A stretch of 64,000 bases of DNA from Enoplolaimus lenunculus (Eukaryota). The DNA lies in NCBI GenBank assembly GCA_030248215.1, contig JASANG010000621.1, positions 124,001 through 188,000 on the forward strand, read 5' to 3'. This document shows, in pieces, positions 16,801 to 59,280 of this stretch (position 1 is the first letter of the stretch; each line of letters begins with the position of its first letter). Position numbers and translations under genes: made by a program. The notes beneath the pieces are model-generated. The model saw only the letters and a list, made by a program, of their open reading frames with translations. It was not told the origin of the DNA and did no database searches.

Positions 16801-18119
16801 TTGAAGTTTGGACACAGAGAGCTGAAAATATTTTCCACAGATTGACTACGGAATCGCAGTGTAGATCTGTTGACAAGATCTGTTGGCAGAGGATGTTGTC
16901 GTCGTTTCAAACACTCCCTTCTCCCTCACAAAATTTTTTGTGCAAAAATAGTATGGCCCCTACCTTACAATTGTCTTCTTCCGAACATTAGCGCATATAT
17001 GGGAAGCAGTAAAAATTGCGTTTCATTACTTGCCAGCTTACTCCCATCAGAAATTTTTGGGTCCGCCGCTGCTAAAAGGCTAGACCTGGTATGCCGTGGT
17101 GGGAATCCCAATTCACGAAGCACTGGTACACGCTTGTGACTGAGAAATTGTTCCCTTAATATTTCACGTTACTGGTTGAGTGTATATACTCGGTTATTAA
17201 ATTTTCTGCTAATAGCAACTGGCTCCTAACGATGATGAAAAAGGCACTAGCACACTTTGTCGGGTTAACTTGAATGGTGTTAATTTCTCTGGTAGAGCCA
17301 GTCTGGCCCTGTATAAAAGGTCTTAGTTTTATTATAATATCCAAAATATTTGCATAAATGTCATATCGATCAAAATCATCTGTCACTTTTGCATAGATTA
17401 TTTCGATTGTTCTATGTTTCTCAACCGTGACATAGCCAAATTTTCATTTCGAGAAAGTTGTAAATTTCTTCCAGCAAGCATAGCTATAACGAAAATTCTT
17501 AGAATATGTGCTAGATTCCAGAAGTCCATTCTACAGCCTGTAAAAAGTGCTTTTCTTGTCTACAAATTTCAAGAAGTCGTTATCGCTCTATTGTCCAACT
17601 TTGAGTACGCCAATGTTGCTGAGTTGTAATTGTTTTTGTTTACCTGCCCGACTAACGTCTCTGTTTAAAATTAGCCTGAGTAAGGGAGTAAATTGGCATT
17701 CGCGTTTTCGAAAATGTAAGTTTGCACCAAGCAGTCAAATATTCCATAGTTGATCGTCTCTTTCCTACGCGCTCTCATACTTTTCTCGCGGTGTCGAAAT
17801 TTTCCACGCAGTTGGAATTTTCTCACGCTGTCGAAGATTTCCAATATACCATCGAATTTTTCTAACGCGGAAATTTTGTCACGCTGTTGCGATTTTCTCA
17901 CGCTGTCCGTATATTGGACCAGTAGTATGGCGATTCGCAAATTCTTCAGTTTCCCACAGTGTTGAAAGCTGCATTCACAATGAACCGCAGTTCTGAGTGT
18001 TTGGCCGGGTACGAAAAGCAAGTATTTTGTTATTGAGGAATTAACTGCCATCGGGCCCAAATCCGTACAGTAGCGTGGAACACGTATCATATAGTCGAGT
18101 TATTTGGATGGCTTCTTTT

Positions 18120-18550
18120 TGTTGTCGTTTTTGTTATGGTATTTCTGTTATTATTTTGTTGTTGGTGGTGGCTTTAGTTGTTTGCGTGTTGTTGGTGGTG
18201 TTGTTATTAATGCTGCTGCTGTTGTTGTTGTGGTTGTTGTTGTCGCTGTTGTTGTTGATGATGATGATGTTTTCTTGTTATTGCCGTTATCGTTGTTATT
18301 ATTATGATTGTTCTGATTACGCCTATAACACGCTGTCGTTGTTATAATTAATATTTCTGTTGCTATCATTTCATTTCGGATGTCACATCACGCACTATTC
18401 TGAAATACTTCTGCTGTTATTTTCTTGTTCTAAAATTTGATTGTTTTGTTGGTGTTGTTGTTATAACTGTTATTATTTTTTTGTTATCCTTGTTGTTCTT
18501 GTTCATTTTTTCTTGTTGCTGTCATTATCGCTATTATAAGTGTCAATATT
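18120..18550. repeat. Degenerate (TTG/TGT/ATT)n low-complexity tract downstream of the bestrophin stop
   Basis: Runs of gttgttgtt, tgctgc, gatgat; overlapping ORFs are poly-L/V/T artefacts. Confidence 0.8.
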
Positions 18551-18578
18551 GTCAATATTGTAATTCAACGGTCATATT

Positions 18579-18928
18579 TCACACACTATTCTGCAAATAT
18601 GTCGGCGTTAGCCGGGGCGGAATCGGTTGTGACTGTATCCGATCTGTAATTACACCTGTTGGGCGCATATTGTAAACATTACGACCCAAATTAGAACAAA
18701 AATCAATTAGTTTTTCACGGGTTGACATATTTTCTTTGGCGATGTTTGCTTCGCGTAGATTGAGCAACGACTCTGTTGCCGGATCCATTTCGTCGTGTCG
18801 GATTTCGTCTTCGTCCACGTGACAAACCGGACGGTGTTCGGAAACGGTTGCAGATGCTTTGGTATGCATCAGGGGTGCAGTTAGCTCGACATGTGGGAGG
18901 ACGTGAGGGAGCTGACCGTGGAGGGTAT
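18579..18928 (-). CDS. best: Bestrophin long last exon 5b
   Basis: tttcag acceptor, phase 1: [27 protein letters not shown]...YLQNSV*. Confidence 0.8.
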
Positions 18929-21900
18929 CTGAAATGTTTGAGGTACCCGTTAAAAGTTTAGACCCTGTTACTAAAAGTAAGCGAGTGGCGGAAGCGCATG
19001 GGCCGAATTGCTTAGCAAGCATGGAACATGAGGGAGTTGATTGTCGAACGTATCTGAATATATTTAAGGCAACAGTTTGAGTTTTAACCCCGCTACTAGG
19101 AGCTGATCTCGCAGAGGTAAATAGTTTTGTTAATTCTGTGTATTAAAATTGCAAAGAAACCCAATTAAACGTGAGAAAGTTGGCTTTGAGATAGACTCTG
19201 TAATATTTGAGGAATTCAGTTAAATTTCAAACATATTAAGTAGGCTTTGTTCTACCGTAGAGGGAATCTGGAATTTGAGGCAACCTTTGAATATTAAATA
19301 AGCAACTAGGATCTGTTCTGGGGCTGAGGTAAAGAAAATGACTTTTGTACACCCAAAACTTGTGGTGGTAACACGTGTCCCTTTGCCCCTCCCCCAAGTT
19401 CCGTCACCTCAATATGCAGAAAACGTTTACCGACAAGCAGATAAGATGTTTCAGTATGGCGATCAAGGAGGTAGTTAAGCTCAAAGTCTTCATCGTCTTC
19501 TCCAAATGGATTCATGAGATCTTCACCAACCTTTAAACAAATCAATCTATTTATAAAATCCATTTCACACCACCCCATACGGAAGCCTATTCGTGGAGTT
19601 TTAAGAGTTCAACCCCTACGTGATTTTCGTTGTTTTTCCGACATTTTTCAATTGGTAATGCCAAAAATCCTGTGCAAATATTTCATAGAACATATATTCC
19701 TCTCCAAAATCGTTGCTACGCTCGTGTTTAAATAGCACATGATACATTTTCTTAATTTCTAAAATGGCATGTCTTATATCTCTAGATTCGGCCTCAGAAA
19801 CAAGAAGTGTCAAAAATTTTGCAATTGTTCATCTTTGACACACAATGTGTGTTTTCTCACGCTACCAGTGAACTCCTGTCCCCGTTTTTCCTTTATTTAA
19901 AACACGACGCTGGGATGAGAAAGATAAAAAATTCTTACCGCAGATTCACCGGGTACTGGAGATTCTGACGGTTTTTACTATCATTAATATTTACACCAGA
20001 AAAAACACATAATACCTTCAACCATCCCACGTAGAATAAAAATTGTAGAATAGTGAAAATAGGAATGTAAACATTGACTTGACCATTCTCAATGCACGCA
20101 GTACGTAACTCTTCTTTCTTTTCGGAATAACATGTAATTGGTCGTATCGGGTATTGACGTGCGATTAAACACATTGCAAAATATCCGTACGTTGCAATTG
20201 TTGCTACCTGTGTGTACACTAATGGTATGCTAACCTGAAATATACATATTTTATCAGGTTTTCTCAAATTTTACTACCTTTCAAAACAAGCATTCTTTAG
20301 AACTTTATCTCCATTCCCAAAACCTAAAATATATACAGCAACTTTTTTCTAAATTCTTCTAAATTTCAGGACAGAGTTTTTGAGACTTTTGTCCGCATTT
20401 ATACACGTATGCAGCATATGACAACAGTTGTCGACAGGTTGTATGCACTGCCGAATCAGCGATTGCTCAACGTCGAAATTCAACGCAGTATTTTACTTTT
20501 GATTAGCCCTCTTTGTAACTAGAGTTTGAGATTCATAGCTGCTGCGGTTAGCTTGTGTGAAACCCTACTACCGAATGATCATGTTGCGAATACCATTTTT
20601 CGAAAATACTCGAAATAATACAACATATATCTACATCCTAAAATTTTTGTGAGATTTCAGAACAACATTTTTAGGGCTTAAGAGTAATACCCACTGGTTG
20701 ATAGCGGTTCATGTTTTTTCTTTCAAGTTTGTCCTTACAAAATGAAACCTGGTTGGGTGGAAGTTTTGGTACACAAAAGCGGATATCATTTAATGTAAGA
20801 CTTGAAGATACAGTCGCATGCGGTAATTAATTCAGTATACCGAATGCTTAAGCTTATTAGATTTTGTAGGCATATATTTGTAGCGAAGGTACGTATATAA
20901 TTACTCTTATTATCAGCTATTTTAATCACAAATTACTTCAAAACTTAAAATAAATTTTGAACTAAAATTTTCATCAACTTCATTTCAGTAAACATAAAAT
21001 CGTTGTCAGTCGCAGTTGGATTAACCGTGTTGATCAGACCTTTTTGATAAATTTAACCGTGACCTTGTTTTACTCCGGCGGATCAAAATTTTCGTAGTGA
21101 GGCTGGGGCAACTATGGTCCTTTTCTATATACGGTGTGACCGTAACCAAAAAGTGTTCCACCGGGCGGTATCAAAAATACAACCTGTATGAAAATCCTGC
21201 AAGCTAACTTTTGAGCTACTCCGTCCCTTCCAGATTTTCAATACCCATTTGGGTTATACCCGCCCTCGTTTCGGGCACGTAGCCAAAAGCGGAGCCATTG
21301 GAAAGGGCTCCGCCCCCCTGTGTAAAAATTTCACCCCCTTAGAAAATTTTCAGTATTGCTTGTAAGCCAGCGAAAACCCTTGTATGCCCCTCCTGAAAAG
21401 TTTTAGCCCCTTAGCAAGGTGAGCTGGTCCAACTCCAGTAATGATGCCATCGTAACTATTTCATAAATGCAGAGTTGAAAGAAATCAGAGGAACCACATG
21501 CCATGTTCGCTATTCTTAGTTATCGGTAGATGTTACGTTTTCAACCAACTTCTGTATTAATTTTATCATGTACCCACTCATGTCTGACCCGGCTTCGACG
21601 CACTCCTGCAATGGTGTATTTTTACCCGCTAGTAAATTAAGGATTCAAAGACATCATGGAATCATATGCTATGTTCACCGCCACCCCACACTCCTGTAAC
21701 TATTTTTATCTTGCTGTACTCCCAACTGGTATATGTGTTTTGTCGAACCCGCCCTGTTTCGCCACACTCATGTAATGATAATCTTCTTCACGCACTCGCG
21801 AATGAAGTATTGAAGGAAATTAGCGATACCACATATGTCCTCCCCCTACCTGTTTCTTCTACGCAAATGTTTTGTAGGAGTACCACAAGTCACGGCCACC

Positions 21901-24900
21901 ACCGCCGCACTCTTATAATTATCTGACGTTTTATCCAACCCGCCTTTCCCGTCTCACTCCTGTAACGTATTCTTCTTGCCCAATCGGAAACGAAGTTTAA
22001 GGAAATTAGTTTGTCACTCACTCGTACGTATATATGTGTGTGTTTTGCAGGGGCGTAGCCAGGGGGGAGCAAGGGGATCATAGGCCCCCACGAAAGCGTC
22101 CCCCAAACCCCCAGTTGGATGGACCGACTCTTGGGGTGCTCCATTTTGGCAAACTAAAAATTTTTTTTCGCTGACCACGAAGTTATAGAGTTGTAAAACA
22201 TTTTATTGGGGCCCCATTGGATCTATTTGAGGGGGCGACTATCTTAACGACGGCCCTGTGAATGAGTTGATTTGGTTTGACTCCGTCTGATTTAAACCAC
22301 AACAGAGATTCTATCGAATGTCACCTTTCTCTCGAAGTAAATACATGAGACGTTTCGAAGAAGAAAGAACCACATTCAAATAAACTTAAACTTCATCGTA
22401 CAAACATCAGCCCATGTTACTTTTAGTGGTACCCCGCTGGCGGGTTTCTCACAAGACCGCAGTAGAGTAGGTTTAAGTGTTAAGAATATTTTTGTGCTTG
22501 TGCTTAGCTTAAGCTTGTCTTAGCCTTTTAGAATTCCGTTTCAAAACGAGTTCCGATTCCAATTCCGATTGCGCAGTCATTTGGAATCGGAATGTTGCAA
22601 TTTTAATTTAACCATACTTTGGTTGCATAAAAATTCTCTTGACCTCAACATCTAAACAAACAAAACCATGTATCGTTTTATTTTGAAAATAATAATTTGT
22701 TGTGGTTTAACATTACAAACCCAAGAAGAATGCCAATATGTTGATGCGACGTCTTTGAAAATTGTTGCCAGCTTACAGATTCCCTAAAGTAATATATTTA
22801 TTACTACAAATTGTATGCGTTGTCACACAATTTGTAGTTTTGATACCGATTCCGGTATAATCCGCTTCCGTTTAGCACCCTGCTGCACATGCTAATTGAT
22901 GAAAATTGCTTAACACACTATATATTTATTGTATTTGTTTGGCCCCTCCGAAACAAAATCCCGGCTACGCCCATGGTATTTTGTTCGTCCCGTCCTCGTC
23001 GGTCCCACTCTGGTAAATGATATTCTCTAACGCCTTGTGCCTATGTTTTGTCTGGCCCACCACCCTCCCTCAATGCCCACTATTGTTTTAAATGAGACAG
23101 CGTTGTCTTACCCACTCGTAAATAAAGAGTTGAAGGAAATAATGTCGGAAATTGTCTAGTTCGAGCAATAGTGCATGCAGCTCATTGACATGAGTGAGTC
23201 GTTTTGACTCGTAGCATTGAATGAATATTGATTGCATCCAAACGATTGGAACAAACCATTTTTGATGCGGATCAAATTGTACATCGACGCTTGTTAACAA
23301 CGCATACTCGTCAGCGGTCATAAGGCCTGCCTGTAAGATGGTTTAGTAACTTAATGTCTGTGTTTTTCTCGTTTTTCTCTTTCTTACTTAGTTTTTCTTT
23401 TTATCTCTCATTCTTTTTCTCTGTTCTCGTTTTCTTACCTTTTTCGTTTCTCTATTTCATACCGTTTTCGTTTTCTCTTATTCTTTCCTCTTACTGTTCT
23501 TTGTAGTTTTCTTCTCTTTTTTACATTTGTCTTTCTTCTCTCTTTCTTTATTTTTTCTATGTTTTTCTTTTTGAAAGCTTTATATACGTTTTAGAATAAC
23601 ATGCTCGATTTTTGCACGAAATTTTCATTTTTCTAATTTTTACACATGGAACAAAAACGAAATCTAGGGACACCGCCAAGAACGTAGCTCGCAGCAGAGA
23701 GATAGGAGTCGAACTCCTCTTGTTTGAGATTTTTGTAGCGGGGTTCTCAACTAATTTTTTTACTTTAATTGAAATCTAATTTCAGCAATCCATTTCATAA
23801 ATGCACGTCTACGGTAAAACTGTAGCAAACTGACCAAATTGAAAACTATTTCACAACTGTGAATTAAATTTAAAAGCCAACAGACGGGTGTTGAAATTTA
23901 CTCAAAAGATCAAATTTTATTTGCAATTTAATGGAGAAAATATCGGTTTTCGATTTGTCTTTATTAAGGAAAGGTATTTTATTCTGAAATTACATATGAA
24001 CATCAGTCACTCTTTTGCAAGTAAGGCTTCAAATTAAAATTGTAAAATCACAGAACATAAATAACTGTTGTGACAAAATTAACAATATCGTGCTGATTCG
24101 AAATTCTACAAGCCAGGTTTGAACCTACCAAACCAAATTTCGACACAACGTATTGATAAATTATCTATAAAGGCAAACTAAAATCTCTTCCAATAATATG
24201 TGCTCATGTTCAACTTTACCAGCCTCATTCAAATATGACACATTACCTCCGAACCTGTTTCAAAATATAAGCAGAAAACCTCGTTTCTAAAGATTTAGCG
24301 CAAAAGTATAACATTATAATCACTGGCTAATGCAAAGGTAAAACCCAGACAAGTGGCCCCAACAGAAATTGAAACCGAAATTTTGTACGTGATATTTAGT
24401 ATTAAAATTGCTTTTGGCTTATCCCTCGTTGCGGTCGCAAGTTTTTTTCACTATTATATATCGCCCTCCTTCTTCAAGCAGCTTACAGCAAACAGTCTGA
24501 AACAAATTAGCAATTTTAGAAGTCAAATATAAATTCCGATACGAATTTTTACTTAGAACGGTGATTCTGGACCTAAAATTTTACCAATGGTTCCTTCTGT
24601 TTAGTTGTTTTGAAGGATTCCAAGCTGATTACAGGCAGGCCTTATGACCTTTGGCGAAGTAAGTATGCCGCGTCGATTTGTAGTGCACTCCTTATTTTTT
24701 TCACTCCTTATTTTTTTACTTTTTTCATGTTTCATTTTTTCTCTTTATGTATATATAGTTTTTTGCTGTTTAGTAATTATATATTTGTGTGCTATTGATA
24801 ACCAACGAGCAACAGGATATGTGTTTCTGGTAAAAAGTTAAGTGTCGTTTCTGGTTTTGAAATCACTATACATATTTACTTTTCAACCAATGGTTGATGC

Positions 24901-27900
24901 ACAGAACTACATGTTCATATTTGACATAAATTATATTCCAAACGGAAGTTTTTTGAGTATATATTCAAAAAGGTCTGATGTTTTCCGACCGATAAATCCT
25001 TCGTTTACTGACAACTGTATCTATTTTAATATAGCTTGATCGCTCACAGTACGTAATTTGTGCATTGTTTAAACTTACTGTTTCTACATTCTAGCCAAAC
25101 TTTGCCGAATATTATGTTTTCAAATGCTCCGTATAAGTCGGGCGACCGCCGCAAGCGGCGGACCAGAAAATTTCGATAAACAAGTTTTTCAAAATCATCA
25201 AATTGGCATGTAAGTTTTAAGTAGTCCTTAATTAACATCCTGTCAGATTTATGTTAATTTCCACGCTGTAGTTGTTCTGTCTGTCCTGAACAACAATTGC
25301 CGGTTGAAACGTCCGGTTCAGTTTCCCAGTGAAGCAAATTGGTGTTCAGGACACAGCGCAACTTGCTACGCAGTATATTTTGCTACGAGTAAACGAAGAA
25401 CATGGTGCGAGAGCAGTTATTTATGAATTCGCATCTTGCTGCTTGCTTAGACCTCAGCAACGGCAGAGCAAAATACGCGGCGTAACAGTTTGTCCTACGA
25501 CATATAAACTACTTCGTAAGCATCAACACACAAAATAAATTGTCTTAAAACTTCAAGACTCTTACGTTCTTAGATTTTCAAGGCATAAATCTCTTGTATT
25601 TCAGACATTAATAGCCTTAAACACCTCAAAAATTCGTTTCTTAAATGGTTAAAACAAATGTCTGTATATTCAAGAAATTACTATTGCCAATTTATAAGAC
25701 ATAAATTTCTTCCTTTCAAGAAATAGTTGTCTTTTATTAAAGAATTAATTTTCCGATTTTATGTATGTAAAAAAGTTGCTCCGTTTACATTCTTAAAAGG
25801 ATATATAAACAATCCAATTTCAAAGATATTTCGGGCTGAGCTCAACCTTCCCGAACCTTAAAGCTTACGTCTATGGACGTATCTTAGGTTATAACATTAG
25901 GGTATTGGGTTGAACTTTACTTCCCACATTTGGAGTCAGTTTCCATGGCATATCTCTGTTTAATTTCAGACATATTTGTCTTGTATTTCAGAAATATTTT
26001 TAATCGTTTATAAAACAAAGCTTAAATTAAAGACATTTAAGTGTCAAAAGTTTTAGACGAAATATAAGTGTTGAATTCAAGACATATATGTCTGGAGTCT
26101 GTATCAAGACATTATTGTCTTAAATTTCAGACAATATTTCTTGAATACAAGACAATTTATTTTGTGTGTACTGTTTGTGTTTGTGGAATACTTATATGCA
26201 CTCGAAAAAATAATTTGTTTACCACAGACGGATCCAAAACGGGGCTGCCCTGGCCTATGCCCTGACCAACAGGTATGAATCCAATATTTTATATGAAGGT
26301 TTAGCACTAAAATGGCTTTTGGCTTCTCCTGGCTTCGCTTTACTGTTTTCCTCTATTATATCGCTCGGGTCCCCGGGATATCCTGGATCCGTCACTGTAG
26401 CTTACCCAATCATAAATGAAAAGTTGGAGGAACGACAGGCGAAATTTGTCGAGTTCAAGGAACATCGCCCGCATAACACTTGAATGAGTGACGCGTTTTT
26501 GTTCGAAACAACGCAAAAACACAGATTGAATCCAACAAATTGGCACAACCCAACCGCCGTGCGGGTCAAATTTTACTTCCATCGTACGATATATCGCATA
26601 CTCCTCTGGTGTCATAAGGCCTGCCTGCAACGTGTTTTTCTTGTCATTTTGTCTTCGTACATTTTTTATTTATGTGATTGTTTACCTGTTTGTTTGTTTG
26701 TATATATGTTTGTTTGTATATTTGTTTGTTTGGTTGGTTGTCTTTTTGGTTTTTGTTTCAGGTTTGCTTTTGTACTTCGTGGCATATTTTATTTGATATA
26801 ATATCTTTTTCCTGTTTGAACCAGAGGTGAAAAATATAGTATATATATATAAACAATGCCTCAGCCGAAAGTGGATTTTCTGCCAAGACCCAACATCAAA
26901 TAAGGGGCACACCTTTGCTTGCACCCGGCTATATTTATATTTTTAATAGTACAAATACGGCAAATTCGGTAATACTGGACCCTTCTTTAGTCAGAAATGA
27001 AGTGTTACCGGAGTGCCGCTATTTCCTAAAAATTTTGAACTAAAAGTGTGTTTTATTTGTGTCTGAACTTCTATTTCAGCAAAATCGTGTATTCATAAAT
27101 AGTGAACTCTTCACTTATTAAATTTCCATTTGGACTGTTGTTGTTTCGTAACCAGGATAAATAAGGTATTGTTTTACACTTGTGTTAAATTCATTGAAAT
27201 GTTGCAAATTTAGCAAAGTACTGTATTGACCCGAATAAGAGGGTTGGGGGGCTGATATTTATTTGGCCTCTCCAGAGGGTACCCTTTTGTTATTCGGTTA
27301 CGGACTGTTATTTATTTTTAAGTCACGCTCCGCCGCCTTTCGTTACTGATATATATCCGGTACTGCAACTATCCGTAGATTAAACGCATATTTGTCTCGT
27401 TTCAATAGTTTGAGCGATAATAAAAGGTTATACTTAGGAATGTAAAGTTTCTAACTCAAAGTATTTGGTTCTAGAGTCATTTATGTGCTACAATTAGGGT
27501 TAATGGACATTTGTGGACTCTAATTAGGGTTTAGGGACTCTATCCGCTTACGGACTCTTATTAGGGATACGGACTCCATTGATTCGGACCCAAAATGGGG
27601 ACCCCCTCTTATTACCCCTCTTATTCAGGTCAATACAGTACACTTCTTGGCTCGTGTATACACTTTCCCTCACATTTTAGATTAATGCTTAGGCTTACAT
27701 CTAGGCAAAGACTGCGGCTTCAAGGCATAAGTACTTAAACCTTTTACTCAATTTAACACGAACAAATCCCAAGTGTACGCCTAAGCGTGTGGGAAAAATA
27801 TAGAGCCTACTTCTTTTTGCAGTTTGCAATCCAAATTGAAACCCCATGAACAACGCAGAAAATTCAAAACTTCTAAAAGTTTTATGAAAATATTCTCAAA

Positions 27901-29150
27901 GAACAGCCGATACTCCAACGTAAAAAAGGATCCATGCGGAAATTTGTACAAACAGTATCTCCATACGTATTTACTTTTCGAAATTTAAAATAAAAATAGG
28001 CAGTTTATATTTTTTTATTTCAGCTTAATAATCATTTCAATACATTACTGATGCAAAACTTTTGAATATAAAATTTTCAACTTGGTTGATAATTCAGCGC
28101 AGTTGAAAAGTTGAAAAATTTTTGTTTTAAAATTTGGCGCAGGGGAGCTACAATGACATCCATACTGAACATAATTGAGGAAACGGTACAACAATCGCAG
28201 TGTCAATAATGAAAAATCACCATTATTTAAGTACATCTAATACGCATACACACACTGTATAACTGTGTAGTTTTTCAATCGATAGAATTGATAGGTTTAA
28301 ATGAATATACGTATAGCAATTACCTGTAATACATGTCACCACATCGCACAATATTTTTGCAAAAATAAACGAACCTGATTTCAGTAGTATATATTATAGT
28401 AAAAACATTTTGTTCTAAAATATTCACTAAATAAAACGGTTGTAATTTATATCCGTTTCAAACATGGCAAATCCTAATTTGAAAAACTTTATATGTAAGT
28501 AGATATACGCAGTTTAAGGTTTCTAGTCGCTCCCGCAAATACAGAGCGTGTTGCAAATCTTGCGCTTTACAAACTGATAGCCACTATCACTACTACACGC
28601 AGCTGAGAATACGACTATAGATATCAAGCGAAATAGAAAATATTCATGTCAAAAACATGTCAAAAAGGTTTAAAAACAAAAAAATGCGACCACTTACCGT
28701 GACCAAATGTTCTTCAGTTGGAAATCGTTTGAGAACGCGTTGAGATAATGTACGCCACGCAAGGACACATGTGCACAACGAATACCGGGCAATAGTTCTT
28801 CGAATGGTCCTTGCATCTTCTTGACGGCCGCGAATATACGAACTAACACAAAGCATTAAACCATCTGGAAACGCAATATATTGAAATTGTTCCCACCATC
28901 GTTTGACGACCATTCCAACGTAAAATCCGAGCAGAAACGGAAGAGGAATTTGTTTTGTATACTCGTTGAATAGCATTGATATTTTTGAAAAATCTTCCCG
29001 TTGTTTAGTGGTCATTAATAGTTGATACCAGATATTTATACCATAATAAACCAATAGAAATATCAGAAGATCTTTGTAAATAGTTTTCCATAGGCTGCCT
29101 TTCCAGCGAAGCAGAAGCGCTGAAAAGCGATCAGAGTACGATATAGTCAT
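18579..29150 (-). CDS. best: Bestrophin family Ca2+-activated anion channel, multi-exon with alternative exons
   Basis: Exon 1 29150-28698 ([36 protein letters not shown]). Exon 2a 26624-26406 or 2b 23330-23112. Exon 3 20234-20016 ([26 protein letters not shown]). Exon 4 19530-19431 ([13 protein letters not shown]a2+ clasp). Last exon 19053-18971 or 18928-18579. All junctions are GT-AG with compatible phases. Confidence 0.95.
18971..19053 (-). CDS. best: Bestrophin alternative short last exon 5a (or pseudo-exon)
   Basis: attcag acceptor, phase 1: [27 protein letters not shown]; paralogous to the start of 5b. Confidence 0.55.
19431..19530 (-). CDS. best: Bestrophin exon 4 (acidic Ca2+-clasp)
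   Basis: [25 protein letters not shown]; donor gtaaac, phase 1. Confidence 0.9.
20016..20234 (-). CDS. best: Bestrophin exon 3
   Basis: tttcag|[10 protein letters not shown]...VGWLK|gtatt. Confidence 0.92.
21570..23110 (-). repeat. Array of decayed copies of the exon-2 3' end/donor junction
   Basis: Recurrent motifs atgtgttttgt..cccgccc..cactcctgtaa..tcttc..gaaggaaatt. Minus-strand remnants read FLQYFIREC|gtgaag (about 21790-21822) and [12 protein letters not shown]|gcaag (about 21975-22015). The array is interrupted by the 22048-22975 MITE. Confidence 0.65.
22048..22975. mobile_element. hAT-type MITE (probably with nested fragments)
   Basis: TIR caggggcgtagcc / ggctacgcccatg; TSD gtgttttg / gtattttg (7/8). 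Confidence 0.8.
23112..23330 (-). CDS. best: Bestrophin alternative exon 2b (73 aa)
   Basis: ttacag|AGLMTADEY...FLQLFIYEW|gtaaga; 219 nt, phase 0-0; 42/73 aa identical to 2a by manual count. Confidence 0.9.
24629..24682 (-). promoter_or_regulatory. Intronic inverted element complementary to the 3' splice sites of bestrophin exons 2a and 2b (putative splicing-regulatory RNA stem arm)
   Basis: 24629-24649 is the exact reverse complement of 23316-23336 (21 nt). 24632-24648 is the exact reverse complement of 26611-26627 (17 nt; 20 bp with one G-U pair). Confidence 0.7.
25527..26168 (+). mobile_element. About 640-bp non-autonomous DNA transposon with CACAC-starting TIRs
   Basis: TIR cacacaaaataaattgtctt / aagacaatttattttgtgtg; inverted copy at about 34638-35250 and a diverged copy at about 55640-56101. 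Confidence 0.8.
26223..26397. mobile_element. Small hAT-like MITE inserted at the exon 2a donor
   Basis: Ends cacagacggatcc / ggatccgtcactg; imperfect 8-bp TSD ttgtttac / tagcttac (6/8) overlapping the donor. Confidence 0.55.
26406..26624 (-). CDS. best: Bestrophin alternative exon 2a (73 aa)
   Basis: ttgcag|AGLMTPEEY...FLQLFIYDW|gtaagc; 219 nt, phase 0-0. Confidence 0.9.
27221..27638 (+). mobile_element. Tc1/mariner-type MITE (TA target)
   Basis: TA|ctgtattgacccgaataagagggg ... cccctcttattcaggtcaatacag|TA; further copies at 41079, 43788 and 59492. Confidence 0.85.
28698..29150 (-). CDS. best: Bestrophin exon 1 (151 codons)
   Basis: ATG at 29150; donor gtaagt after EEHLVT; contains the RWKGS, neck helix (IPLPFLLGF) and RFP motifs. 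Confidence 0.93.
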
Positions 29151-32100
29151 GCTCACAGCAGCTAAACCAGCGAAGGCGCAGGCGACCACAAATGCACCAA
29201 GAAAATTAAGCGATAAATTAGAATTGCGAACACAATCAGACAATAGAATTACATTAACCTGTCCAGCTTCAGTTAAATAACGAATGAAATTACGGCAAGC
29301 ACTTGGGATGAAATCGGATTGGTCAGTTTCAACGCTGGACAAAGCTTTATTATCCAATATTACTTGACGATATTGCGGTAACGCTGCCGTGATAAAATGT
29401 TGTGTTTTAGCGAATGGAATATAGCAAATAATCGCAACGAAATGGCAATTGGCCCGTGACACAAAAATATCGACATTCACAGATATAAAGTGAACGAATG
29501 AAAAACAAGTCAATTGCAAAAAGTAATTTCACACTTGACGTAAAATGTTAAGAGAGTTTTCTCGTTTCTAGCATTTATTGTACATTTCAGATTGAAGTTT
29601 GTGGTTACAGATTACAGGATACCTCACGAGCAACTAATTTGTCGTAAAATCGCGACGGTTTACTGTATAAATTTACTTTAAAATTTAATATTTTTAAATT
29701 CAATCAACTGTTTTATCTGAAACTATATATAAGGTGGTCACAAATTTGAGCCAAAGCTGCTCACAAATTTGAGCCAAAGTTACCAATATGTAAAGATCTT
29801 TTCTCCACAATGAATCTTAAGATGGAACATTTTTTCAACATACTTGAAAAATTTGCCTTATAACTCATAAAATTGCATTTAAAATATAGGTATGTTGAAA
29901 AAACGTCTGCCGAATGTTTGTATTTTACTCAAAATGATATTTTGCAACCATCCAAAAAGTTGGACAGTGATTTATTACTACAAATCTTTTGATTTTGAAA
30001 GAAAAATGAAAATTTTAATGCCCAGATTTCATTTTGTATTTAATATAGTAAACGCTCTCTTCCCGAAATTTTAAATGTGAAATATATGGGCGTAAAAGCG
30101 TTTTGGTATTTCATTATAGAGGTTCCATGCACTCTATGATTTGTCTGATGAGGCTGAAATTAACCATTAAACACATGAGCCGTCCGGTACAAAGCAGAAA
30201 TCAGAAGTTCGATTTCTCTCGGTTTGAGGTTTTTTATTTATAAGGCTAAAACAATTTTAATCAGCAGATTGATTTATAATCTAAAAACTTTATTCTTCGC
30301 CGATGTTTTTGGTTCACTGCTTGGTGTGATTGAGTTTAAAACGGTGCCGAATATAAGTATAAATGCGGTAAATTGCATAGAAATCAACATAATAATCTCT
30401 GAAGTGCTGTTAATTGTTTGAATCTTGTTGTAACAAAAGTAAAGCGAAACGCGCTAAAAAGATAAATTTTGCAAAATTATGGAAAATTATACTACCGAAA
30501 TTTCCGGAGCCTCCGGCAAAAATTCTACCGGAGCCACAACCAGAGCTGGAGGTTGATTTTCTGCCGCGGGATCCGGAGGCAGACCTCTGAATGTACCCTG
30601 CTAATTATGTAGCACAAACGTGCAAATGCGTATACGCTGGTACATGATATTTTGTGCATATATTCTGTATATATAGAGTGATGTTGAGTTGCGACACATG
30701 AAAATTACGCTACGGTTTTTACACTTTTAAGTCAACAGCTGAAATTTGTTGCAAAACACATTAATGTATGAAAAGATTACTATTCTATTAAACTTAGTGT
30801 ATTAGTACAACACTTTCTTTTTTGGTGTTTTTGTCACTTAAAATACCACCGAAAAACTGTTGTTTCATTTCGCTAGAGCACACATTGTTTAATATTTCTT
30901 TGCCAAAATTATCGTCGCCGAGTAACGCCATTTCAAGACAGACTCTTAAACCGTGGTTGAAAAAACATTTTGTATGTTTTATAATCAAATGGCGTCCATA
31001 GAACTGTCTCACTGTAAAACACAATCTTGCAACCAATTGATAAGAGCATCACATTCCTCATTCGGCACCCTTTCGGTTTTAATAAACAACACAGACCGTT
31101 GAGTAAATACCACTGTACTCACAGAACCCAAACTTGTTGATAAACAATCATATTTTAACCAGCATCTGACAAAATTTTCCTTTTCATTTTTTCATAAGTA
31201 GCATGTTTTAGCATCCTGTTTAATCTAACAACATTTTGAACTTGACCTGAAATCTCTACTTAAAAATTTCGCATTCAAATTCTAAGCACCCAGTGAATTT
31301 AAAAAATTCGCGTCATCTATTGCCGCCATAATATAGCTAATTAATGGATTACAAGTACAGCATATAAAAGTTAAGTTCACAGGAATATGAAACGCCAGAA
31401 CTACACGGGACAAATAATCAATATTTTACTTTTTACGTGCATAATGCATACGAAAATCAAAAACCGAGCGAAAAACCTAAAAAACTTATTCGATCAAGTG
31501 TTAAAGTAGAACATATTGTAAAATTTATACCCCTAACATTTAGCGTCTTGTATATGGAGACGGCCATCACACGCCGTTTCGAGAAGGCATATAGCGAATT
31601 ATTAGTGCAAAACAGTAAGAGTTAGATTATATTATATCTAGCGCTCCCTTGACATACACCTGAACCATAAGATAGAGCATCCTTGTTTGTACGGGTTGAA
31701 AAAAGTGCTTAATACATAAAAAGACGTCCGCAGTTTTAAACATTATGTTTTCAAAGCTTGTCTTCAAATATTAAATATAACAAGTGTTAAAAATACATTT
31801 TGTGCTGGAAAACATTACAATTTTTAAATTTTTGTTCGCCTCGCGCTACTCTCACGTTCCTGTCTTTCTGTATATGCCGTGTGTATACCTTTACAAATTC
31901 GACCCACAACATTCAAGGACCCCCGGTTCGTTCGAATATTGCACCATACACACATACAGATAATTTTACAGTTTACCGAGATGGTTTCTGTGATGTTTGT
32001 ATTTATTTTGTAAATATATATGCATATACATACTTTATTGTATACATGTTTGTATGTATAATATTTTTGGGCAAATGAGGTACTTACAGAAAACGATGAC

Positions 32101-34637: not shown

Positions 34638-35250
34638 CACACAAAAAATTGTTTGTATTCAAGAAATATTGCCTGAAATTTAAGACAATTTGTCTTGATA
34701 CAGACTCCAGTCACATATGTCTTGAATCCATGACTTTTATATGTTAAATTTCAGAAATCTTCAGTTAAATGTCTTAAATTTAAGACTTTGTTTTATGAAC
34801 GATTAGGAAACATATTTGTGAAATATAAGACATACATTTCTGAAATAAAACACGGAGATATGCTATGGAAACGACTCCAAAATTGGGTTCTAAAGCTCAA
34901 CCCAACACCCTAATTTTACAACCTAAGAATGCGTCCAAGACGTAAACTTAAGTTGGTGGTAGCCTGAGCTCAACCCGAATTATCTTTGAAATTCGATTAT
35001 TTAAATACCCTTTTAAGAATATAAACAGAACAACTTTTTTACATAGATAAAGATCAAAAAATTAATTCTTGAATGAAAGACAACTATTAAAAAAATTTAT
35101 GTCTTAGAAATTGGCAATAGGAGTTTCTGGAATATAAGACATTTATGTTTTAACCATTTAAGAAATGAATTTCTGAGATGTTTAAGACTATTAATGTGTG
35201 AAATACAAGATATTTATGTCTTGAAAATTTATGAAAGTAGGAGTCGTGAG
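34638..35250 (-). mobile_element. Inverted copy of the 25527-26168 element
   Basis: Collinear reverse-complement similarity (e.g. gatacagactccag / ctggagtctgtatc; gagctcaacc / ggctgagctc region). Confidence 0.8.
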
Positions 35251-36116: not shown

Positions 36117-39100
36117 TCATAATATTGTAGTCAACAGCTGCCCAAAATTTTTGAATTGAAACTGAAATAGTTTCAGCGAACCATTTAAAAACTCGCGTTT
36201 AACCCCGCCAAACATAGGGGTATACCTGCGACACCAGTACAGTTCTACACACCTTGATAAAACTGCCTTCAAAATTAAATGAAGCATAATTTTTGAGTTG
36301 TAGATTTCACGTAATTTCATCCGCTTAAATTCTGCTGGATACATTGAATTATGCAGTAAAATAAGTTCAGTATGTCGTATTTTGCCTAAATTTTTCAAAT
36401 TTGTACTATTTTTCTGCAATGTTGCTAAATCAACTAGCGACACGTATGTTAAATTGTTTCTGTCAAATTGACCCCATGTTAGTTCGCCTTGCATAACGGC
36501 GTATTTAATTCGGCCTCGGGCAAGTAAATGCTTCATAAGTGGCTGGATTATGTCGAACAAAATTTCTGTCCATAGAAGGGGGTAGACGCTGAAATGATAA
36601 AAAATCATCTTTTACTAATATATTAAGACAGTGAGCTTGTTTTGGTACCTTCTGCTTTAAATTGCAAAATTCAGCTTCCCCAATACCCTTGCAACTTCCA
36701 ATTATCCCGTGTGAAAGGATATTATTGCATTTTGAAATTTTACTGATATTATATATCCAGGTTGTCACAGTTTTGAATACTTTAAAACAATAATTTGGAG
36801 CAAAGCCGCAAAATTTATTGCAACTCGCGATTACTTATTTTACAGCTATTTATAGCGACAAGACATGTTGTGAACTTCAGATGAACAATTTAATTTGCAT
36901 CGCGAAATTTTAGGCACCATGGTACTTACCTATTTCTGTATCGGATCCGCCCCTTGCCCATGTTTTGGAAATTTCAGTTTAAAAATTTAATTCCTGCTCG
37001 CTAATATATGCTACATTTTTCAGTAAGATTTAGTACTTTGGTATGTACTTTAGCCTTCAAACACAATTATAACTTAAACATAATCCTTTTCATAACACCG
37101 ACAACATTTCTTACCTTTTTCCAGTTTTATCGGCATAATGCATTGCTAGAGATTCGTTAAACTGAACCAATTTTCGATCCGCTTTCAGTTTCCATAATCG
37201 AAATAAAACCAGATTAGCTATCGAAGGCCCAAAAACGCCAATTCCTAAAGGGGCGTCGTCAGTGAGCCACGAGTACCCTACCAGGTCGTACCCTGTCGTA
37301 AGCAAATTGAAATATTTTGCCAAGGGGTCGACCCCAATCGTATCCGCGTCTATCCACATCCCCCCGTATTTTAACAGAATAGCGCATCGGATGTAATCTG
37401 CTCTGTGTGTAGATGATAGATAATAAAATTGTCGGGGTAGCACCGAGTGAAGTTCTGCTGTTGCCCAAGTTTCATTAATAACCGCAACAAATAGCTGAAA
37501 TTTGTGAGATGGGAGGCTTACCCAGGCTTACGGATAGAATTAGGCTTATGTTACTGAGTAGGTCCGTATAATTACATGAACCCTGTGTTCTGCTAACAAT
37601 ATTCTTTATTCGCCAAAAACATTAAGACATTTGAGTTTTAACGCCTATGTTCAATAGGCATTGCTTCAGATCTAGCGCACTCAAAAGTTCTGCGCAAAAC
37701 TTATCCTCATGTTGATGCTTAGGCTTACACTTAAAAATATGCTTATGCTACTGTTACGACCCTAGACTTGGCAGCAGGTTTAAGCTAGGCTTTGACATAG
37801 GCACAGATTACGATTTGGGCTTAAGCTTAAGAGTACACACTTACTTAATGTTTAGGAGCATGTTCGTTGCGCCAATTCTAAAAACAGGTCGTTAAACAAT
37901 TTGTTCAACATACATTTCGGCTGTTGTAACATCGTACGCTTTCAATTGCTAATGTAATATACGCAGGCATAGGTTGGTAATCCCAAAAAATCCATATTAT
38001 TGGTTTACCCGCAATTGTATATAACCGTTTTGATGAATCAAACGTTGCACTATTTAGCGATCTGAAAAATCGTTTGTATTAAAAGACAGACACGAAAAGT
38101 TTACTCAAGTTGCCGACCAAAATATTAATATTAAATTTTAACGCAAAAAACAAAATGTTATTTTAAACGCTTTCGAATTTCAAACAGCATCTTGCAAAAT
38201 GAATAATTGAAGCGAAAAGATCTTTAAAATGAATCTTTCAGAAAAAACCTTCAGTTAACAAATTTCAGCATTTTAAACGCTATTTTGGCATCTAAGTGAA
38301 GAAGTAAACGCACTATATTAAAACGCTAAAAACGTTTTGTATTTTTGACACAATGTCGTTTTTTGATCACGGAAAACGGATATTAGTTATGTCTATTGTT
38401 AAAAATGATGGACCTTAAAAGTAAAGATAACAAATAAAAATCGAAAATCGAGGCGAAATCAACGCTTACACGTACTCACAATTGATGCATTCATCATCAT
38501 TTTTATTACACGAGAGCCTTTCTGAACTATTCGAATTTGTGTTGAGCACTTCTTGGTCAATCAGACTAGCATTTGCCAGTAACGATTCATCGTAACGCTC
38601 CAGTCGCCCGTAGGCAACTATTCTTGTCAAAAATTTTTGGTCAACTTTGCTGGATTGTTGAAAATTTGAACAAATTAAGTAAATAATGATAACCGACGTG
38701 CAAGTTAGTGCTACTAGGACATACGCAACGCGAGACAGATGTTTTCGAGTGAAAAGCTAGAAAAAATACAATTTTACCAAATAGTCCGTTTGCAAGGGAA
38801 AGGATAGACCGATATATCTTGTTCAGAAATATTAGGAGAATCCAGAAAAACCTATTATATATTAACAATGAATAAACCTCAAATGATAGATGTCAAAAAA
38901 TTTCTTTTACATCAGCTTATACCGCACCCAGCGTCAAATGCTGGCTACGTAACAGACCAGATAATTACATAAATTTTGACTTAAACGCAAACTATAGTGT
39001 TTGCATATTGTAGGCTCCTGAAATTGAAATCCCGCTACGGCCATGTTCGAAATCTGGATGAATTATAACGAACGACTGTTGGTAAAATCTTGAGATTGAA

Positions 39101-45978: not shown

Positions 45979-51631
<5,653 letters not shown>

Positions 51632-56264: not shown

Positions 56265-58007
56265 ATGAAATACTGCTTGTTACTTTTTGTGGGAATTGCT
56301 GGAAGTTTTGGCATTGTGACAGGTAATTGTTTATTTTGGAATTGCAGTATTGGAGTAGCTGAGGGCATTTATAGTGAAAGCAGAGTACTAAATCAAAAAG
56401 AAGATTTTATAGAGAATATGCAGTTGTGAAACACATTTTGCAGATATCAAAAGATTTGCATGAACGCAACCTTTGAGGGATACTTTTGTGAAATATTGTC
56501 AAAACTGTTGGTTTAGACATTTTTTAAGACATCTGAACAATTAACTCCTCGAAAATGCCTCAAAACTCAAAACCACACGCTCAGAACGACCGATTTCTAT
56601 AAAACTGTAGAAGGTTTTCGTTCCCAAATTGCCGAAACCTCCGGCAAAAAATTTACCGAAGCCGATGGCTGATTTTCTGTAGAAGCCGGAGGTAAACTTC
56701 TGCTTATGTACCCTACTAAATTACTGTAGCAAAAATTTGCTTTATTTCTACATCCTCCAATAGATTCCGTTTGCTTTTCAGTTGCTATTCTGGTGATCAA
56801 TAACGTTGTCTGAAGACGAAGACGTTTCATGTTTACAGCGCGACAAATAAAAATTTGTTGAGAACACGCTGTAATAGACAATTTTTGGCCATTTTTTATA
56901 TTTTGTTGTACAAAGAGAAAAATGATTTAATTTCTTTTGTTTTGAAATCAAAATTTTATGTTATCACACGACGGATTATCGGACACTGAGACCGATTTTT
57001 ACAAGAAACCAATATTGGATTTATGCTCTGCTTGCTTGCGTAATTAGAAGTCTTCAAGTTTTAATTTGTAAATATTTTTTCAGGACTGGATCAAACATGT
57101 CCAGCTGGGCGACGACCATATTCAACCAGTGCCGGAACATGCGGTCATTTCTACAATAAATGCCCGGACTCGTACGAGTGTATGGACTCTGGCATTTGTT
57201 GTGGGCCACAAGGATCTGCAAGTAAAAATTAAATGTATAATTTAAATAATTTAAACATTGGCGTTTTTGAAGGTGTTGTATTGTGCACATGTAATGAAGG
57301 AGTTACAATTTTCGTTCAGAGAAAGATACTATTACTTTTTGAAACAGTTTACTGCGTTGCAAGGAAACACGTCAAAACCTTTTGGTGCAAAATTTGCAAC
57401 GTATGATTTAACCCTTTCTTCTAAAGAATATCTCCATTTCGTCGAATATATAGATTACTGTCGCAGAGGCTGTTCCATCTTGCTAAGACTAAAGATATCG
57501 TATTGTATATCCTTGTAATAATTCTTAAGCATTGCGCATTGTGCATTATAACGCGTGCACAGTTTGCTCTGAGTTACTGATAGACTATTCGGTAATGGTT
57601 CATTATGTATATTTCAGATGCAATCACAACGCCAGAGTACAGCCGCTATAGCACTCCACGTCCTGGAAACGTTAACAATGATTTAGATTCATGGGAAAAC
57701 GAATTCGGAGATCATGAAGATGATTATGACAATAATTGGAACAATAATAATAACAACGATAATAACAATGATAATTGGAACAATAATAATAACAACGATA
57801 ATAACAATGATAATTGGAACAATAATAACAATAACAACAATAATAGGAATAATAATAATAATAACAACAATAATGTTCCTTGTGAAGATACATCATCAAA
57901 TTGTTTTTGGCGACAGACATTCGGACGCTGCAATAGTGATAATGCGAAACGAAAATGCAAGAAAACATGTGGACACTGTCCAACAGATAATAATAATAAT
58001 AATAATC

Positions 58008-58038
<31 letters not shown>

Positions 58039-59214
58039 TTATGATAATACAGATAATTGGAATAATAATAACAATAACAATAACAACAACAATAATAACA
58101 ATAATAATTGGAATATTAATAACAATAATAACGGTAAGATAACGTTATATGAAGGGCAGCAACTTTGCGGGATTCATATAAAAACCATATATTATAGCAA
58201 TGTCAGGCTTGGTTTTTTGACTATCGAAATGAGCTTTTCTATCTAACGTAACTTAGCCGTTTAAAATTTTCCACAGCTTTACAAGCACTTCGTCTAAAAC
58301 GTGAGTTTGCAGACTTTTATTGTGGCGTTCAAAAGTTACAAATCTGTTATATACAATTCAGAATGTGCAAATAGGCGTTCGATAGGAACATTAAAGTGTA
58401 TACTTCTTCCACAATTATAATGGGTCATTCACGTAATACTGTCTACGCTACTGTAAAAAATTGTCCGCGCATACCTGGTTTTAAGGGCGAGACAAAACGA
58501 CAATCTCCTTAAGCTATAAGGACGTCACAGAAGGTGTAATTAGCTAGTGGGATTTGGCAGCAGGTCCTTCGAAGGGAAAAAGGACAATGTAGGTACAGTC
58601 TGGACACAGTCTCTGACGATACGAGTTCCTTCGAACAGACCCTGTATAATTGCAAAGCAAAGTTCCTTTCGACAAACTTTGTGTTATGAAATAAGCCGAG
58701 TCCCTCCTGACCGACTCTGGACAAAACAGTTGTCCTTAAAATAACGTATTGACAATTTAGCATGGGTATGGACGGCAACGTGACCACGCATAGAACGTTT
58801 TGAAAGAGTGCGAGTTGTCAACAGGGTCTACACAGGATATGAGTGATATTTGGGCGTGTAATTTGGAAACAATAAAACTACAAACTTAGGGGCTCGTACG
58901 TGGGGACAATTTTTTACAGTAGCGTAGACAGTAAGCGTGGATAACCCATAATTGCGTACACCATGTAAAATTGTTCTCAGAAATGGATTTTATGTAAACT
59001 TCAGAACCGTGCGAAGACAAATCGTGGAAATGCTTTTGGCGTCCAAGTGTCGGTCGATGCAACAGCGCAAATGCTATTCGATACTGCAAAAAGACGTGTG
59101 GCCATTGTCCTGGACAACGGCAAAACGATAACAATAACAACAACAACAACGATGGCCTTGGAGGATTCGGACCAGGCGGACCAGAAGGAAATTTTATCAA
59201 ACCTGAAGGCAGAG
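56265..59214 (+). CDS. Secreted ShKT-domain protein with poly-Asn linkers (3' end uncertain)
   Basis: Exon 56265-56322 encodes signal peptide MKYCLLLFVGIAGSFGIVT. Exon 57618-58133 has poly-N plus CEDTSSNCFWRQTFGRCNSDNAKRKCKKTCGHC. Exon 59005-59214 has CEDKSWKCFWRPSVGRCNSANAIRYCKKTCGHC. All junctions are phase 1. Read-through stop at 59226-59228 if the donor at 59215 is unused. Confidence 0.85.
57725..58132 (+). repeat. Coding (AAT/AAC)n microsatellite, including a 39-nt tandem unit (DNWNNNNNNDNNN)
   Basis: aattggaacaataataataacaacgataataacaatgat repeated; poly-Asn in frame. Confidence 0.9.
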
Positions 59215-59280
59215 GTAGGTTATTTTGAAGTGTAAGCTCTGGTTCACAAAAATGTATCCTTCTTGAACCCTGAAAAACTG

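Follow-up and report, generated by a model that had tools for sequence, protein, structure and literature searches.

A bestrophin (chloride-channel) gene on the minus strand of the 64-kb stretch of Enoplolaimus lenunculus DNA analyzed here (the window) carries two duplicate exons, 2a and 2b, and the intron between them contains an element (24629-24683) that is complementary to the start of either exon. Judged from their sequences, the element and the two exons probably constitute a splicing switch of the type described for human ATE1, and since neither the gene nor the phylum is related to ATE1, the likeness would be convergent. In the likely model, the element would pair with the start of 2a or of 2b but not both at once, hiding that acceptor and leaving the other exon for splicing. 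The parts of the gene are as follows, all on the minus strand:

28698..29150, minus strand, coding part of exon 1 (151 aa, GT donor at its end; Pfam PF01062 model positions 15-158)
26622..26821, minus strand, stretch rich in A that precedes the 2a acceptor (the last 30 nt ahead of its AG contain 3 U)
26406..26624, minus strand, exon 2a, the upstream duplicate (219 nt, phase 0-0)
23328..23616, minus strand, stretch rich in A that precedes the 2b acceptor
23112..23330, minus strand, exon 2b, the downstream duplicate (219 nt, phase 0-0)
20016..20234, minus strand, exon 3, the common downstream exon (Pfam model positions 230-289)

All four exon pieces score above the gathering cut-off (24.2 bits) of the Bestrophin HMM PF01062, with 170.9 bits for exon 1, 38.2 for 2a, 40.6 for 2b and 62.9 for exon 3, and they fall at consecutive or shared positions of the model, 160-229 being covered by both 2a and 2b. 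The duplicates, both with AG/GT ends, are identical at 42/73 amino acids and 146/219 nucleotides, and are separated by an intron of 3,075 nt, in agreement with a first, sequence-only reading that described two phase 0-0 exons about 58% identical in protein and about 3 kb apart. The two exons keep 25/35 and 28/35 of the conserved columns, and 11/38 and 10/38 of the variable ones, and exon 2b is slightly nearer to orthologs than 2a. At the aperture-equivalent positions 205, 208 and 212, exon 2a has S, R and L, and exon 2b has N, H and L. Gating of vertebrate bestrophins is set by aperture positions (PMC9253114), and by sequence comparison the swapped exon bears the residues of the cytosolic aperture, where the predicted isoforms would differ. 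At 21460-22010 the 3' end of the exon recurs in degenerate copies, and several high-copy elements lie in the introns of the gene.

Neither double inclusion nor skipping of the duplicates produces a frame shift or a stop; all four exon joins are in frame and stop-free, so that frameshifting or NMD cannot exclude any exon combination, and NMD-enforced exclusion was rejected because no join adds a stop or a frameshift. Steric or distant-branch-point exclusion is ruled against by the length of the intron and by the lack of an AG-free zone before 2b, where AGs occur at -21, -29, -39 and further upstream. Both acceptors appear to be weak, being A-rich rather than U-rich. The sequence-only reading argued that neither a frameshift nor steric hindrance could enforce exclusivity; its implication that nothing else could do so is too strong, since in C. 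elegans unc-32 the exclusive exons 7a/7b, also of 3n length and with a 725-nt intron, are controlled by proteins, according to a survey of exclusive exon clusters (PMC4165533). The parts of the proposed switch, again on the minus strand, are:

26611..26631, minus strand, arm A, the acceptor and first 14 nt of 2a (20 bp with the element, including one G-U, plus a terminal G-U)
24686..24717, minus strand, tandem pair of 16-nt copies with weak complementarity to the 3' part of 2b, of uncertain membership in the switch
24664..24807, minus strand, stretch rich in A at the element's 5' side
24650..24683, minus strand, extension of the element in bulged blocks (pairs with codons 6-17 of 2b and partly with 2a)
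24629..24649, minus strand, core of the central element (single copy; fully complementary to arm B and nearly so to arm A)
23316..23336, minus strand, arm B, spanning the 2b acceptor and the exon's first 15 nt (pairs perfectly with the element over 21 bp)

The core is the exact reverse complement of arm B over 21 nt (BLAST E 4e-6 within the window), and with 2a it forms 17 Watson-Crick pairs that extend to 20 bp through one G-U, and to 21 with the terminal G-U. The same element bases are used by both stems, each of which covers the acceptor AG. These stems, and the additional blocks at 24662-24668 and 24670-24677, were located and pair as the initial reading had claimed. From the 2a acceptor to the element there are 1,976 nt, and from the element to the 2b acceptor 1,293 nt. 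Coding sequence is the partner of 15 of the 21 core bases and of the entire extension. The extension pairs with codons 6-17 of 2b at -22.7 kcal/mol, which falls near the 1st percentile when 1000 random targets are compared; the tandem copies reach -20.8 with the 3' part of 2b (about the 1st percentile of 400) and have no such fit with 2a. The 2b branch region resembles 24768-24790 in sense orientation over 23 nt, a likeness that was discarded (E 8.5), and a single sub-threshold snoRNA match in an Rfam search of 17000-31000 was disregarded.

Among the 18 perfect stems of at least 12 bp in the 11.3-kb pre-mRNA, the top two are those of the element with 2a and with 2b. A perfect 21-bp stem was not seen in any of 200 block-shuffles of the pre-mRNA, while a 17-bp stem appeared in 18 of them, and the 2a stem is therefore not significant by length alone. 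The 17-nt motif common to the exons occurs three times in the window at up to 3 mismatches, against 0.05 times on average over 100 shuffles. Stem energies had been put forward as a check on the pairing, and after opening costs the predicted net energy of the core is -23.7 kcal/mol with 2b and -20.2 with 2a. The extended duplexes reach -62.7 (2b) and -54.2 (2a), the latter dropping to -47.3 once exon 1 has been joined. In two-part folds the acceptor AG of either exon is paired with the element at P of about 1.0, and in three-way folds the MFE with the 2b stem is -865.0, against -858.8 kcal/mol with the 2a stem forced, a gap of about 6 kcal/mol that lies within the error of folding across 1.3-2 kb, which is unreliable. 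In the forced-2a fold the AG of 2b sits in a weak local hairpin and is not free. As a model, masking and its geometry fit every computation run.

The contigs available for comparison came from three DNA runs on two samples of one organism in a single study. One contig of 2,677 nt covers 2b and the element, and is identical in runs X1 and X2, which makes a misassembly of this pair unlikely, though both runs are from one sample, possibly the source of the window; in the second sample, the core and 2b are uncovered. Exon 2a is on a separate contig past a high-copy repeat, so that it is the window that links it to the element. No paralog or further copy of 2b or of the element was found in the contig sets at 80% likeness, and the depth of the element is that of a single copy outside any repeat family.

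The best sign of selection is internal to the gene and lies in the synonymous sites. Over codons 18-73 the two exons share 12/30 synonymous sites, close to the 13.1 expected at saturation, whereas over the paired codons 1-17 they share 7/8 against 2.8 expected (simulation P 0.003, Fisher 0.021), in a test of eight sites with the codon-17 boundary chosen after the stem was seen, and a codon table drawn from seven pieces of the window that include some read-through. Of the stretches that are identical in the two exons, the longest two (17 and 9 nt) coincide with the blocks that pair with the element in both. It had been claimed that the paired start is identical even at synonymous sites; the three synonymous sites of the 17-nt run are weak alone (P 0.016 at that position, 0.11 for such a run anywhere in the exon), and the case rests on codons 1-17 taken together. 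Identity is broken at codons 5-7 and ends at the AG, and at the exon 3' ends synonymous identity is 3/7. Gene conversion or an exonic enhancer would be expected to give an equal signal in codons 1-17.

The stem might matter for 2b only, or tune the isoform ratio, with RNA-binding proteins enforcing exclusivity, as they do in C. elegans unc-32 or egl-15, and the pairing with 2a being incidental. This is unlikely, but several observations favor it: the element is nearer to 2b in its 21 perfect pairs, in the energy of the extended duplex and in a distal block that suits 2b only; C. elegans has protein-run exclusive pairs in which the exons are of 3n length and the introns long (PMC4165533); and a 5-nt motif occurs 10 times within 1.7 kb downstream of 2b. 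Since the element is closer to 2b at the discriminating positions, its pairing with 2a could simply follow from the duplication. A stem acting on 2b alone would, however, leave unexplained why 2a has the same synonymous bases in the paired blocks amid a saturated remainder. The core difference between 2a and the element is G-U compatible, and the nematode splicing-factor motifs searched for are not enriched.

Somewhat less probable again is that the element is a roleless relic, an inverted and partly deleted copy of the 2b start, with the identity of the exon 5' ends owed to gene conversion or to constraint on an exon-start enhancer. Its blocks are collinear with 2b and copy-like, the locus has a history of duplication (the copies of the exon 3' end and the high-copy intronic elements), and a 14-nt identical run arises somewhere in the exon in 11% of simulations. 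On the other hand, the element is single copy rather than a repeat-family member, and its core is perfect and centered on the acceptor while the adjoining extension blocks are broken by about six changes, which is not predicted by a uniform neutral copy. The identity of the exons, interrupted at codons 5-7 and halting at the AG, is unlike a single conversion tract, and has no comparable counterpart at the 3' ends.

A larger role for the element, in which the 55-nt strand is a three-partner switch with a core that masks either acceptor and a middle block that pairs with the shared exon-1 donor, is doubtful. The middle block forms 13 bp with this donor (-16.2 kcal/mol), the best value when compared with 26 other sites in the window with the same donor hexamer. 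Such a strand, having arisen as an inverted exon copy, would couple donor and acceptor choice in one RNA module, freeze codons in both exons and exchange the aperture of a nematode chloride channel.

Editing-complementary sequences that direct ADAR typically form bulged intron-exon duplexes of 30-50 bp, as in GluA2-like cases, and the intronic complement and coding exon seen here have that classical layout. It is nevertheless very improbable that the duplex steers ADAR to the first codons of either exon or to the A of the acceptor, whether or not splicing is affected, because useful recoding sites are few among the paired codons, the splice junction lies at the center of the stem, and the analogous ATE1 stems were tested and found to be unedited (PMC7797038). 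An antisense micro-exon (plus strand, 24635-24658; 24 nt in frame between a canonical AG and a consensus donor) has both splice signals in the sequence but is hardly credible, as the AG is inherited from the copied acceptor, the donor-like word is accounted for by a 4-nt slippage duplication, and tblastn found no plus-strand bestrophin exons within the window.

The proposed switch has both parallels to and differences from other systems. Masking had originally been presented as a departure from known cases, a view that does not hold, since in human ATE1 a central strand (R3) between exons 7a and 7b hinders either 3' splice site, with masking proven by compensatory mutants and double inclusion resulting when the central strand is mutated (Kalinina et al. 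2021, PMC7797038). Both genes have tandem homologous exons of equal 3n length, and in each a single strand of the intron between these exons is complementary to the two 3' splice-site regions; the two bestrophin pairings share bases and have comparable predicted stability. In ATE1 the arms R1 and R4 are described as intronic, just upstream of the exons in polypyrimidine tracts (PMC7797038), whereas the bestrophin arms are mostly coding, the acceptors are A-rich, and the arm would outlast the first splice. The ATE1 switch is conserved and experimentally tested, while that of the bestrophin gene is predicted from its sequence. No significant counterpart of R2/R5, the second long-range module that biases the isoform ratio, was found among the perfect stems of the pre-mRNA: a perfect 15-bp pair (24965-24979 with 21033-21047) lies at matching positions, but 71 of 200 shuffles also have one.

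Dscam1, 14-3-3, Mhc, MRP1 and the bidirectional srp/RIC-3 are docking-site/selector systems (PMC6071210), which likewise have competing long-range pre-mRNA stems with one common strand in a duplicated-exon cluster, and an origin by arm duplication is plausible for the bestrophin gene as well. There the docking strand flanks the cluster, the selectors lie in introns, and an exon is activated by the pairing (PMC6071210), whereas the bestrophin strand is internal and would cover the acceptor of the exon that is omitted. Dscam-type docking was rejected, as the shared strand is between the exons and no comparable stem reaches a flanking intron (18 perfect and 16 G-U stems), and so were Dscam-type selectors, because the pairing covers the AG and first codons and leaves no free splice site. 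In Drosophila Atrophin an acceptor is suppressed by a stem covering it (PMC2724269), but this is a single stem acting on alternative acceptors of one intron, without competition between duplicated exons. The exclusive clusters of C. elegans resemble the present case in their homologous duplicates, including 3n pairs, and in long introns without a steric or NMD explanation; the mechanisms given in the available part of the survey are proteins, short introns and NMD, with no case of RNA pairing, and the term 'best-' has no match in its main text (PMC4165533).

Exon 1 is 58-63% identical to nematode F32G8.4-like bestrophins (P0002-P0008), which have the same extended loop in exon 2 and are predicted proteins with a single copy of the segment. 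In a closer relative (P0026), the exon 1/2 junction is read through as one ORF. A metagenome scan gave 38 loci, all distant bestrophins, of which none had the core or two matches to the segment, and four had one weak match to 2b (21-24%). A doubled segment was sought in 28 protein representatives, where the one with two stretches (P0027) has a short repeat over the exon 2/3 border with other limits, and in 105 longer protein candidates, where none was found (weak evidence); eight near-length protein matches have no pair. In a tree of the 73 columns, 2a and 2b group with P0029 (86/85, not starred; long branch), which is too weak for dating the duplication.

In the proposed switch, the weakness of both acceptors suggests that exon choice waits for transcription of the element. 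If the element catches 2a first, exon 1 would join 2b and 2a would be lost with the intron. Where 2a has been committed beforehand, or is displaced by 2b with its longer extension, 2b would be masked and 2a would join exon 3. Splicing of exon 1 to 2a would strip the intronic part of arm A, and the resulting growth in the advantage of the 2b stem means that double inclusion would be blocked. A 20-bp stem does not melt unaided, so switching would need strand displacement or a helicase, and the 2a/2b ratio would depend on how folding kinetics play out against a slight thermodynamic preference for the 2b stem. The element probably began as a 2b-like exon copied in inverted orientation, which has decayed except where pairing was kept.

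The mechanism class is not new, given the ATE1 precedent; what differs, going by the sequence, is that the arms are mostly coding, that the gene encodes a channel, and that the swapped exon carries aperture residues. The assertion that no such case had been described in a nematode or a bestrophin is borne out by the literature searched, in which no exclusive pair driven by RNA structure was found in either; a closer precedent could exist in work on Dscam exon 17 or on convergent evolution in MRP. The system is clean to test, having one 21-nt core and three arms, and synonymous compensatory mutations are feasible. If the reading is true, it would be an independent origin of the ATE1-type mask of one of two acceptors and, by the literature searched, the first exclusive pair driven by RNA structure described in a nematode or a bestrophin, and it would back the idea that competing stems recur from exon duplication. 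Coding sequence would then be constrained by splicing structure, and the gene would supply two channel subunits differing at gating-relevant positions of the aperture.

The bestrophin gene lies on the minus strand, and its exon 2 occurs in two versions, 2a upstream and 2b downstream in the transcript.

Features of the bestrophin gene and its neighborhood
29150-28698, minus strand, bestrophin exon 1, coding part (matches Pfam PF01062)
26624-26406, minus strand, bestrophin exon 2a (matches Pfam PF01062, model positions 160-229)
23330-23112, minus strand, bestrophin exon 2b (matches Pfam PF01062, model positions 160-229)
20234-20016, minus strand, bestrophin exon 3 (matches Pfam PF01062)
below 19530, minus strand, more bestrophin exons
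5059-10002, plus strand, 3' end of a PDZ-containing gene (presumably MAST-kinase-like)
36120-38760, minus strand, DXD glycosyltransferase
45980-48200, minus strand, SRP54
57596-59230, plus strand, Asn-rich protein with Cys motifs that we take to be ShK-repeat-like (no Pfam match)

Among named proteins, exon 1 scores best against nematode F32G8.4-like bestrophins (58-63%; seven of the top eight, of 25 matches), so the gene is likely to come from a nematode. Exons 2a and 2b are each 219 nt long and of phase 0-0, with 42/73 amino acids and 146/219 nucleotides identical. Both look functional, since they are open, free of indels, and keep the conserved columns of 11 orthologs (25/35 in 2a, 28/35 in 2b) over the variable ones (11/38 and 10/38). 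Synonymous identity over codons 18-73 (12/30) is at the saturation expectation of 13.1, and by this measure the duplication is old. Exon 3 (20016-20234) encodes roughly 14 extra residues, two of them cysteines, in the extracellular loop; the seven aligned relatives lack this insertion.

The intron between 2a and 2b contains an element (core 24629-24649, extension 24650-24683) that is complementary to the acceptor and first codons of either exon; a distal block (24686-24717), which may or may not belong to it, is weakly complementary to the 3' part of 2b. As the sequence-only reading had claimed, the core matches the start of 2b exactly in reverse complement (the final 6 bases of the intron and the first 15 of the exon, E 4e-6), and a stem search bore out its 20-bp pairing with 2a, which includes one G-U. 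These two stems are the strongest of 18 perfect stems of at least 12 bp in 18400-29700, and with G-U allowed they rank second and third of 16, the first being formed by the ends of a high-copy element. The whole window holds six exact inverted repeats of at least 15 nt with arms at most 3.5 kb apart: two are the element stems, and one is the end pair of a high-copy element. A perfect 21-mer stem arose in 0/200 shuffles, and a 17-mer stem in 18/200. One contig from sequencing runs X1 and X2 (a single sample, perhaps the window's own source) covers 2b and the element at single-copy depth and without any difference from the window; exon 2a is on a separate contig, past a repeat. The feature is real and non-random. 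Around the perfect 21-nt core the element is a mosaic, with adjoining blocks that are collinear with 2b and carry about six breaking changes; against 2b, both the extension and the distal block rank near the 1st percentile of random targets.

High-copy repeats occupy 22050-22980, 25526-26169, 27218-27641 and 24392-24465 of the introns. Those at 25526-26169 and 27218-27641 have clear terminal inverted repeats and are MITE-like; the former lengthens the distance from 2a to the element by about 640 nt, and a relative of it lies near 34650-35250. The intron after 2b (21460-22030, 22980-23145) carries a degenerate tandem array that is broken by a repeat element. In it, several eroded repeats of the exon's 3' end (67-84% similar across 25-69 nt) recur about every 170-190 nt, and one 5-nt motif has ten copies.

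Excerpts of the account of human ATE1 describe a segment, R3, between exons 7a and 7b that is complementary to R1 and R4, overlapping both splice sites; either 3' splice site is hindered but never both, and when R3 is mutated or blocked both exons are included, an effect rescued in a triple mutant (PMC7797038). Judged against those excerpts, the bestrophin case has every sequence-level feature of ATE1, and the exon pair likely belongs to the same class, differing in that its arms are mostly coding, its acceptors are A-rich and it lacks a significant second module. The masking mechanism proposed in the sequence-only reading agrees with these features, but it is not new, being already described for ATE1. 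A perfect 15-bp pair (24965-24979 with 21033-21047) has an R2/R5-like placement and would loop out 2b; a similar pair occurs in 71/200 shuffles. A Dscam-type docking system, as excerpted from PMC6071210, was rejected because in this gene the strand common to both stems sits between the exons and the acceptor itself is covered by the stem. Titles and abstract openings, mainly of openly available literature, gave no precedent in a bestrophin or nematode; supplementary lists of predicted exclusive exons or stems could include this case or a similar one.

We consider a convergent ATE1-type switch, in which the element would mask one acceptor at a time, the probable reading. Predicted core duplexes reach -37.2 (2a) and -40.4 kcal/mol (2b), or -20.2 and -23.7 net of opening costs, and extended duplexes -54.2 and -62.7 kcal/mol. 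In two-part folds, of 2a with the element and of the element with 2b, the acceptor AG is paired by identical bases of the element each time (P ~1). In a 3.6-kb fold with all three arms the 2b stem is preferred (-865.0) and the 2a AG is unpaired; a fold constrained to the 2a stem is 6.2 kcal/mol less stable and places the 2b AG inside a weak local hairpin. Splicing of exon 1 to 2a is predicted to weaken the extended duplex with 2a to -47.3, so the element would move to 2b and block double inclusion. The element's middle block (24657-24671) can also pair with the exon-1 donor and intron flank (28686-28698; 13 bp, 3 G-U, -16.2 kcal/mol), the best partner against 26 other same-hexamer and 112 same-pentamer sites, a pairing found post hoc.

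A one-way or bias element, with exclusivity under protein control, is unlikely. Proteins may nonetheless control such a choice: according to excerpts of PMC4165533, the C. elegans unc-32 7a/7b exons, whose lengths are multiples of three and which are separated by an intron of 725 nt, are controlled by UNC-75 and RBFOX. Near the bestrophin exons, no enrichment was found for the motifs that we presume such splicing factors to bind. The argument that neither frameshift nor steric hindrance could enforce exclusivity held: each of the four joins keeps the frame and creates no stop, the intron separating 2a from 2b spans 3,075 nt, and no AG-free zone before 2b was found within it, so NMD, steric and distant-branch-point models are ruled out.

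Selection is suggested for the paired codons 1-17, where synonymous identity is 7/8 against 2.8 expected (P 0.003 by simulation, Fisher 0.021), a test of eight sites with an approximate codon table and a boundary picked after the stem was seen; for codons 1-10 it is 6/7 versus 13/31 (P 0.045). Gene conversion or an enhancer are alternative causes. The longest identical runs between the exons (17 and 9 nt) are precisely the two blocks that the element pairs in both (joint P given the proteins 0.005; a 14-nt identical run anywhere, P 0.11). Each of the three arms has an A-rich tract in front of it; the minus strand has seven segments of this kind (0.7% of windows, at a threshold set after the fact), three of them these. 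Over the 30 nt upstream of the AG, 2a has 3 U and 2b has 8, compared with 10-16 for six further acceptors (two from bestrophin and four from SRP54, two of the latter read at a neighboring AG). A neutral relic has a rather small chance of being correct. An editing guide is improbable, and an antisense micro-exon can be practically dismissed: on the plus strand, 24635-24658 could be taken for an in-frame micro-exon of 24 nt bounded by a canonical AG and donor, a resemblance that probably arose from the inverted copy together with a 4-nt slippage.

Among related proteins, the ORF P0026 of a closer relative (8.8-kb contig) reads through the exon 1/2 junction and the ORF P0029 has the limits of a single exon 2, a hint that the two-exon arrangement may be lineage-restricted, the tree being weak beyond that. 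In the Heligmosomoides gene model P0027, a stretch of about 25 residues is repeated over the exon 2/3 border, which may reflect a chimeric model or a further local duplication. The exon was aligned, by way of the protein P0001, to BEST1 of chicken (4rdq_A, in which the numbering is shifted by one). Aperture positions 205, 208 and 212, as excerpted from PMC9253114, correspond to exon residues 49, 52 and 56, which are S/R/L in 2a, N/H/L in 2b and N/R/D in the ortholog consensus. Residue 56 is Leu in both exons and Asp in at least 10 of 11 orthologs. We infer that the 2a and 2b isoforms differ functionally.
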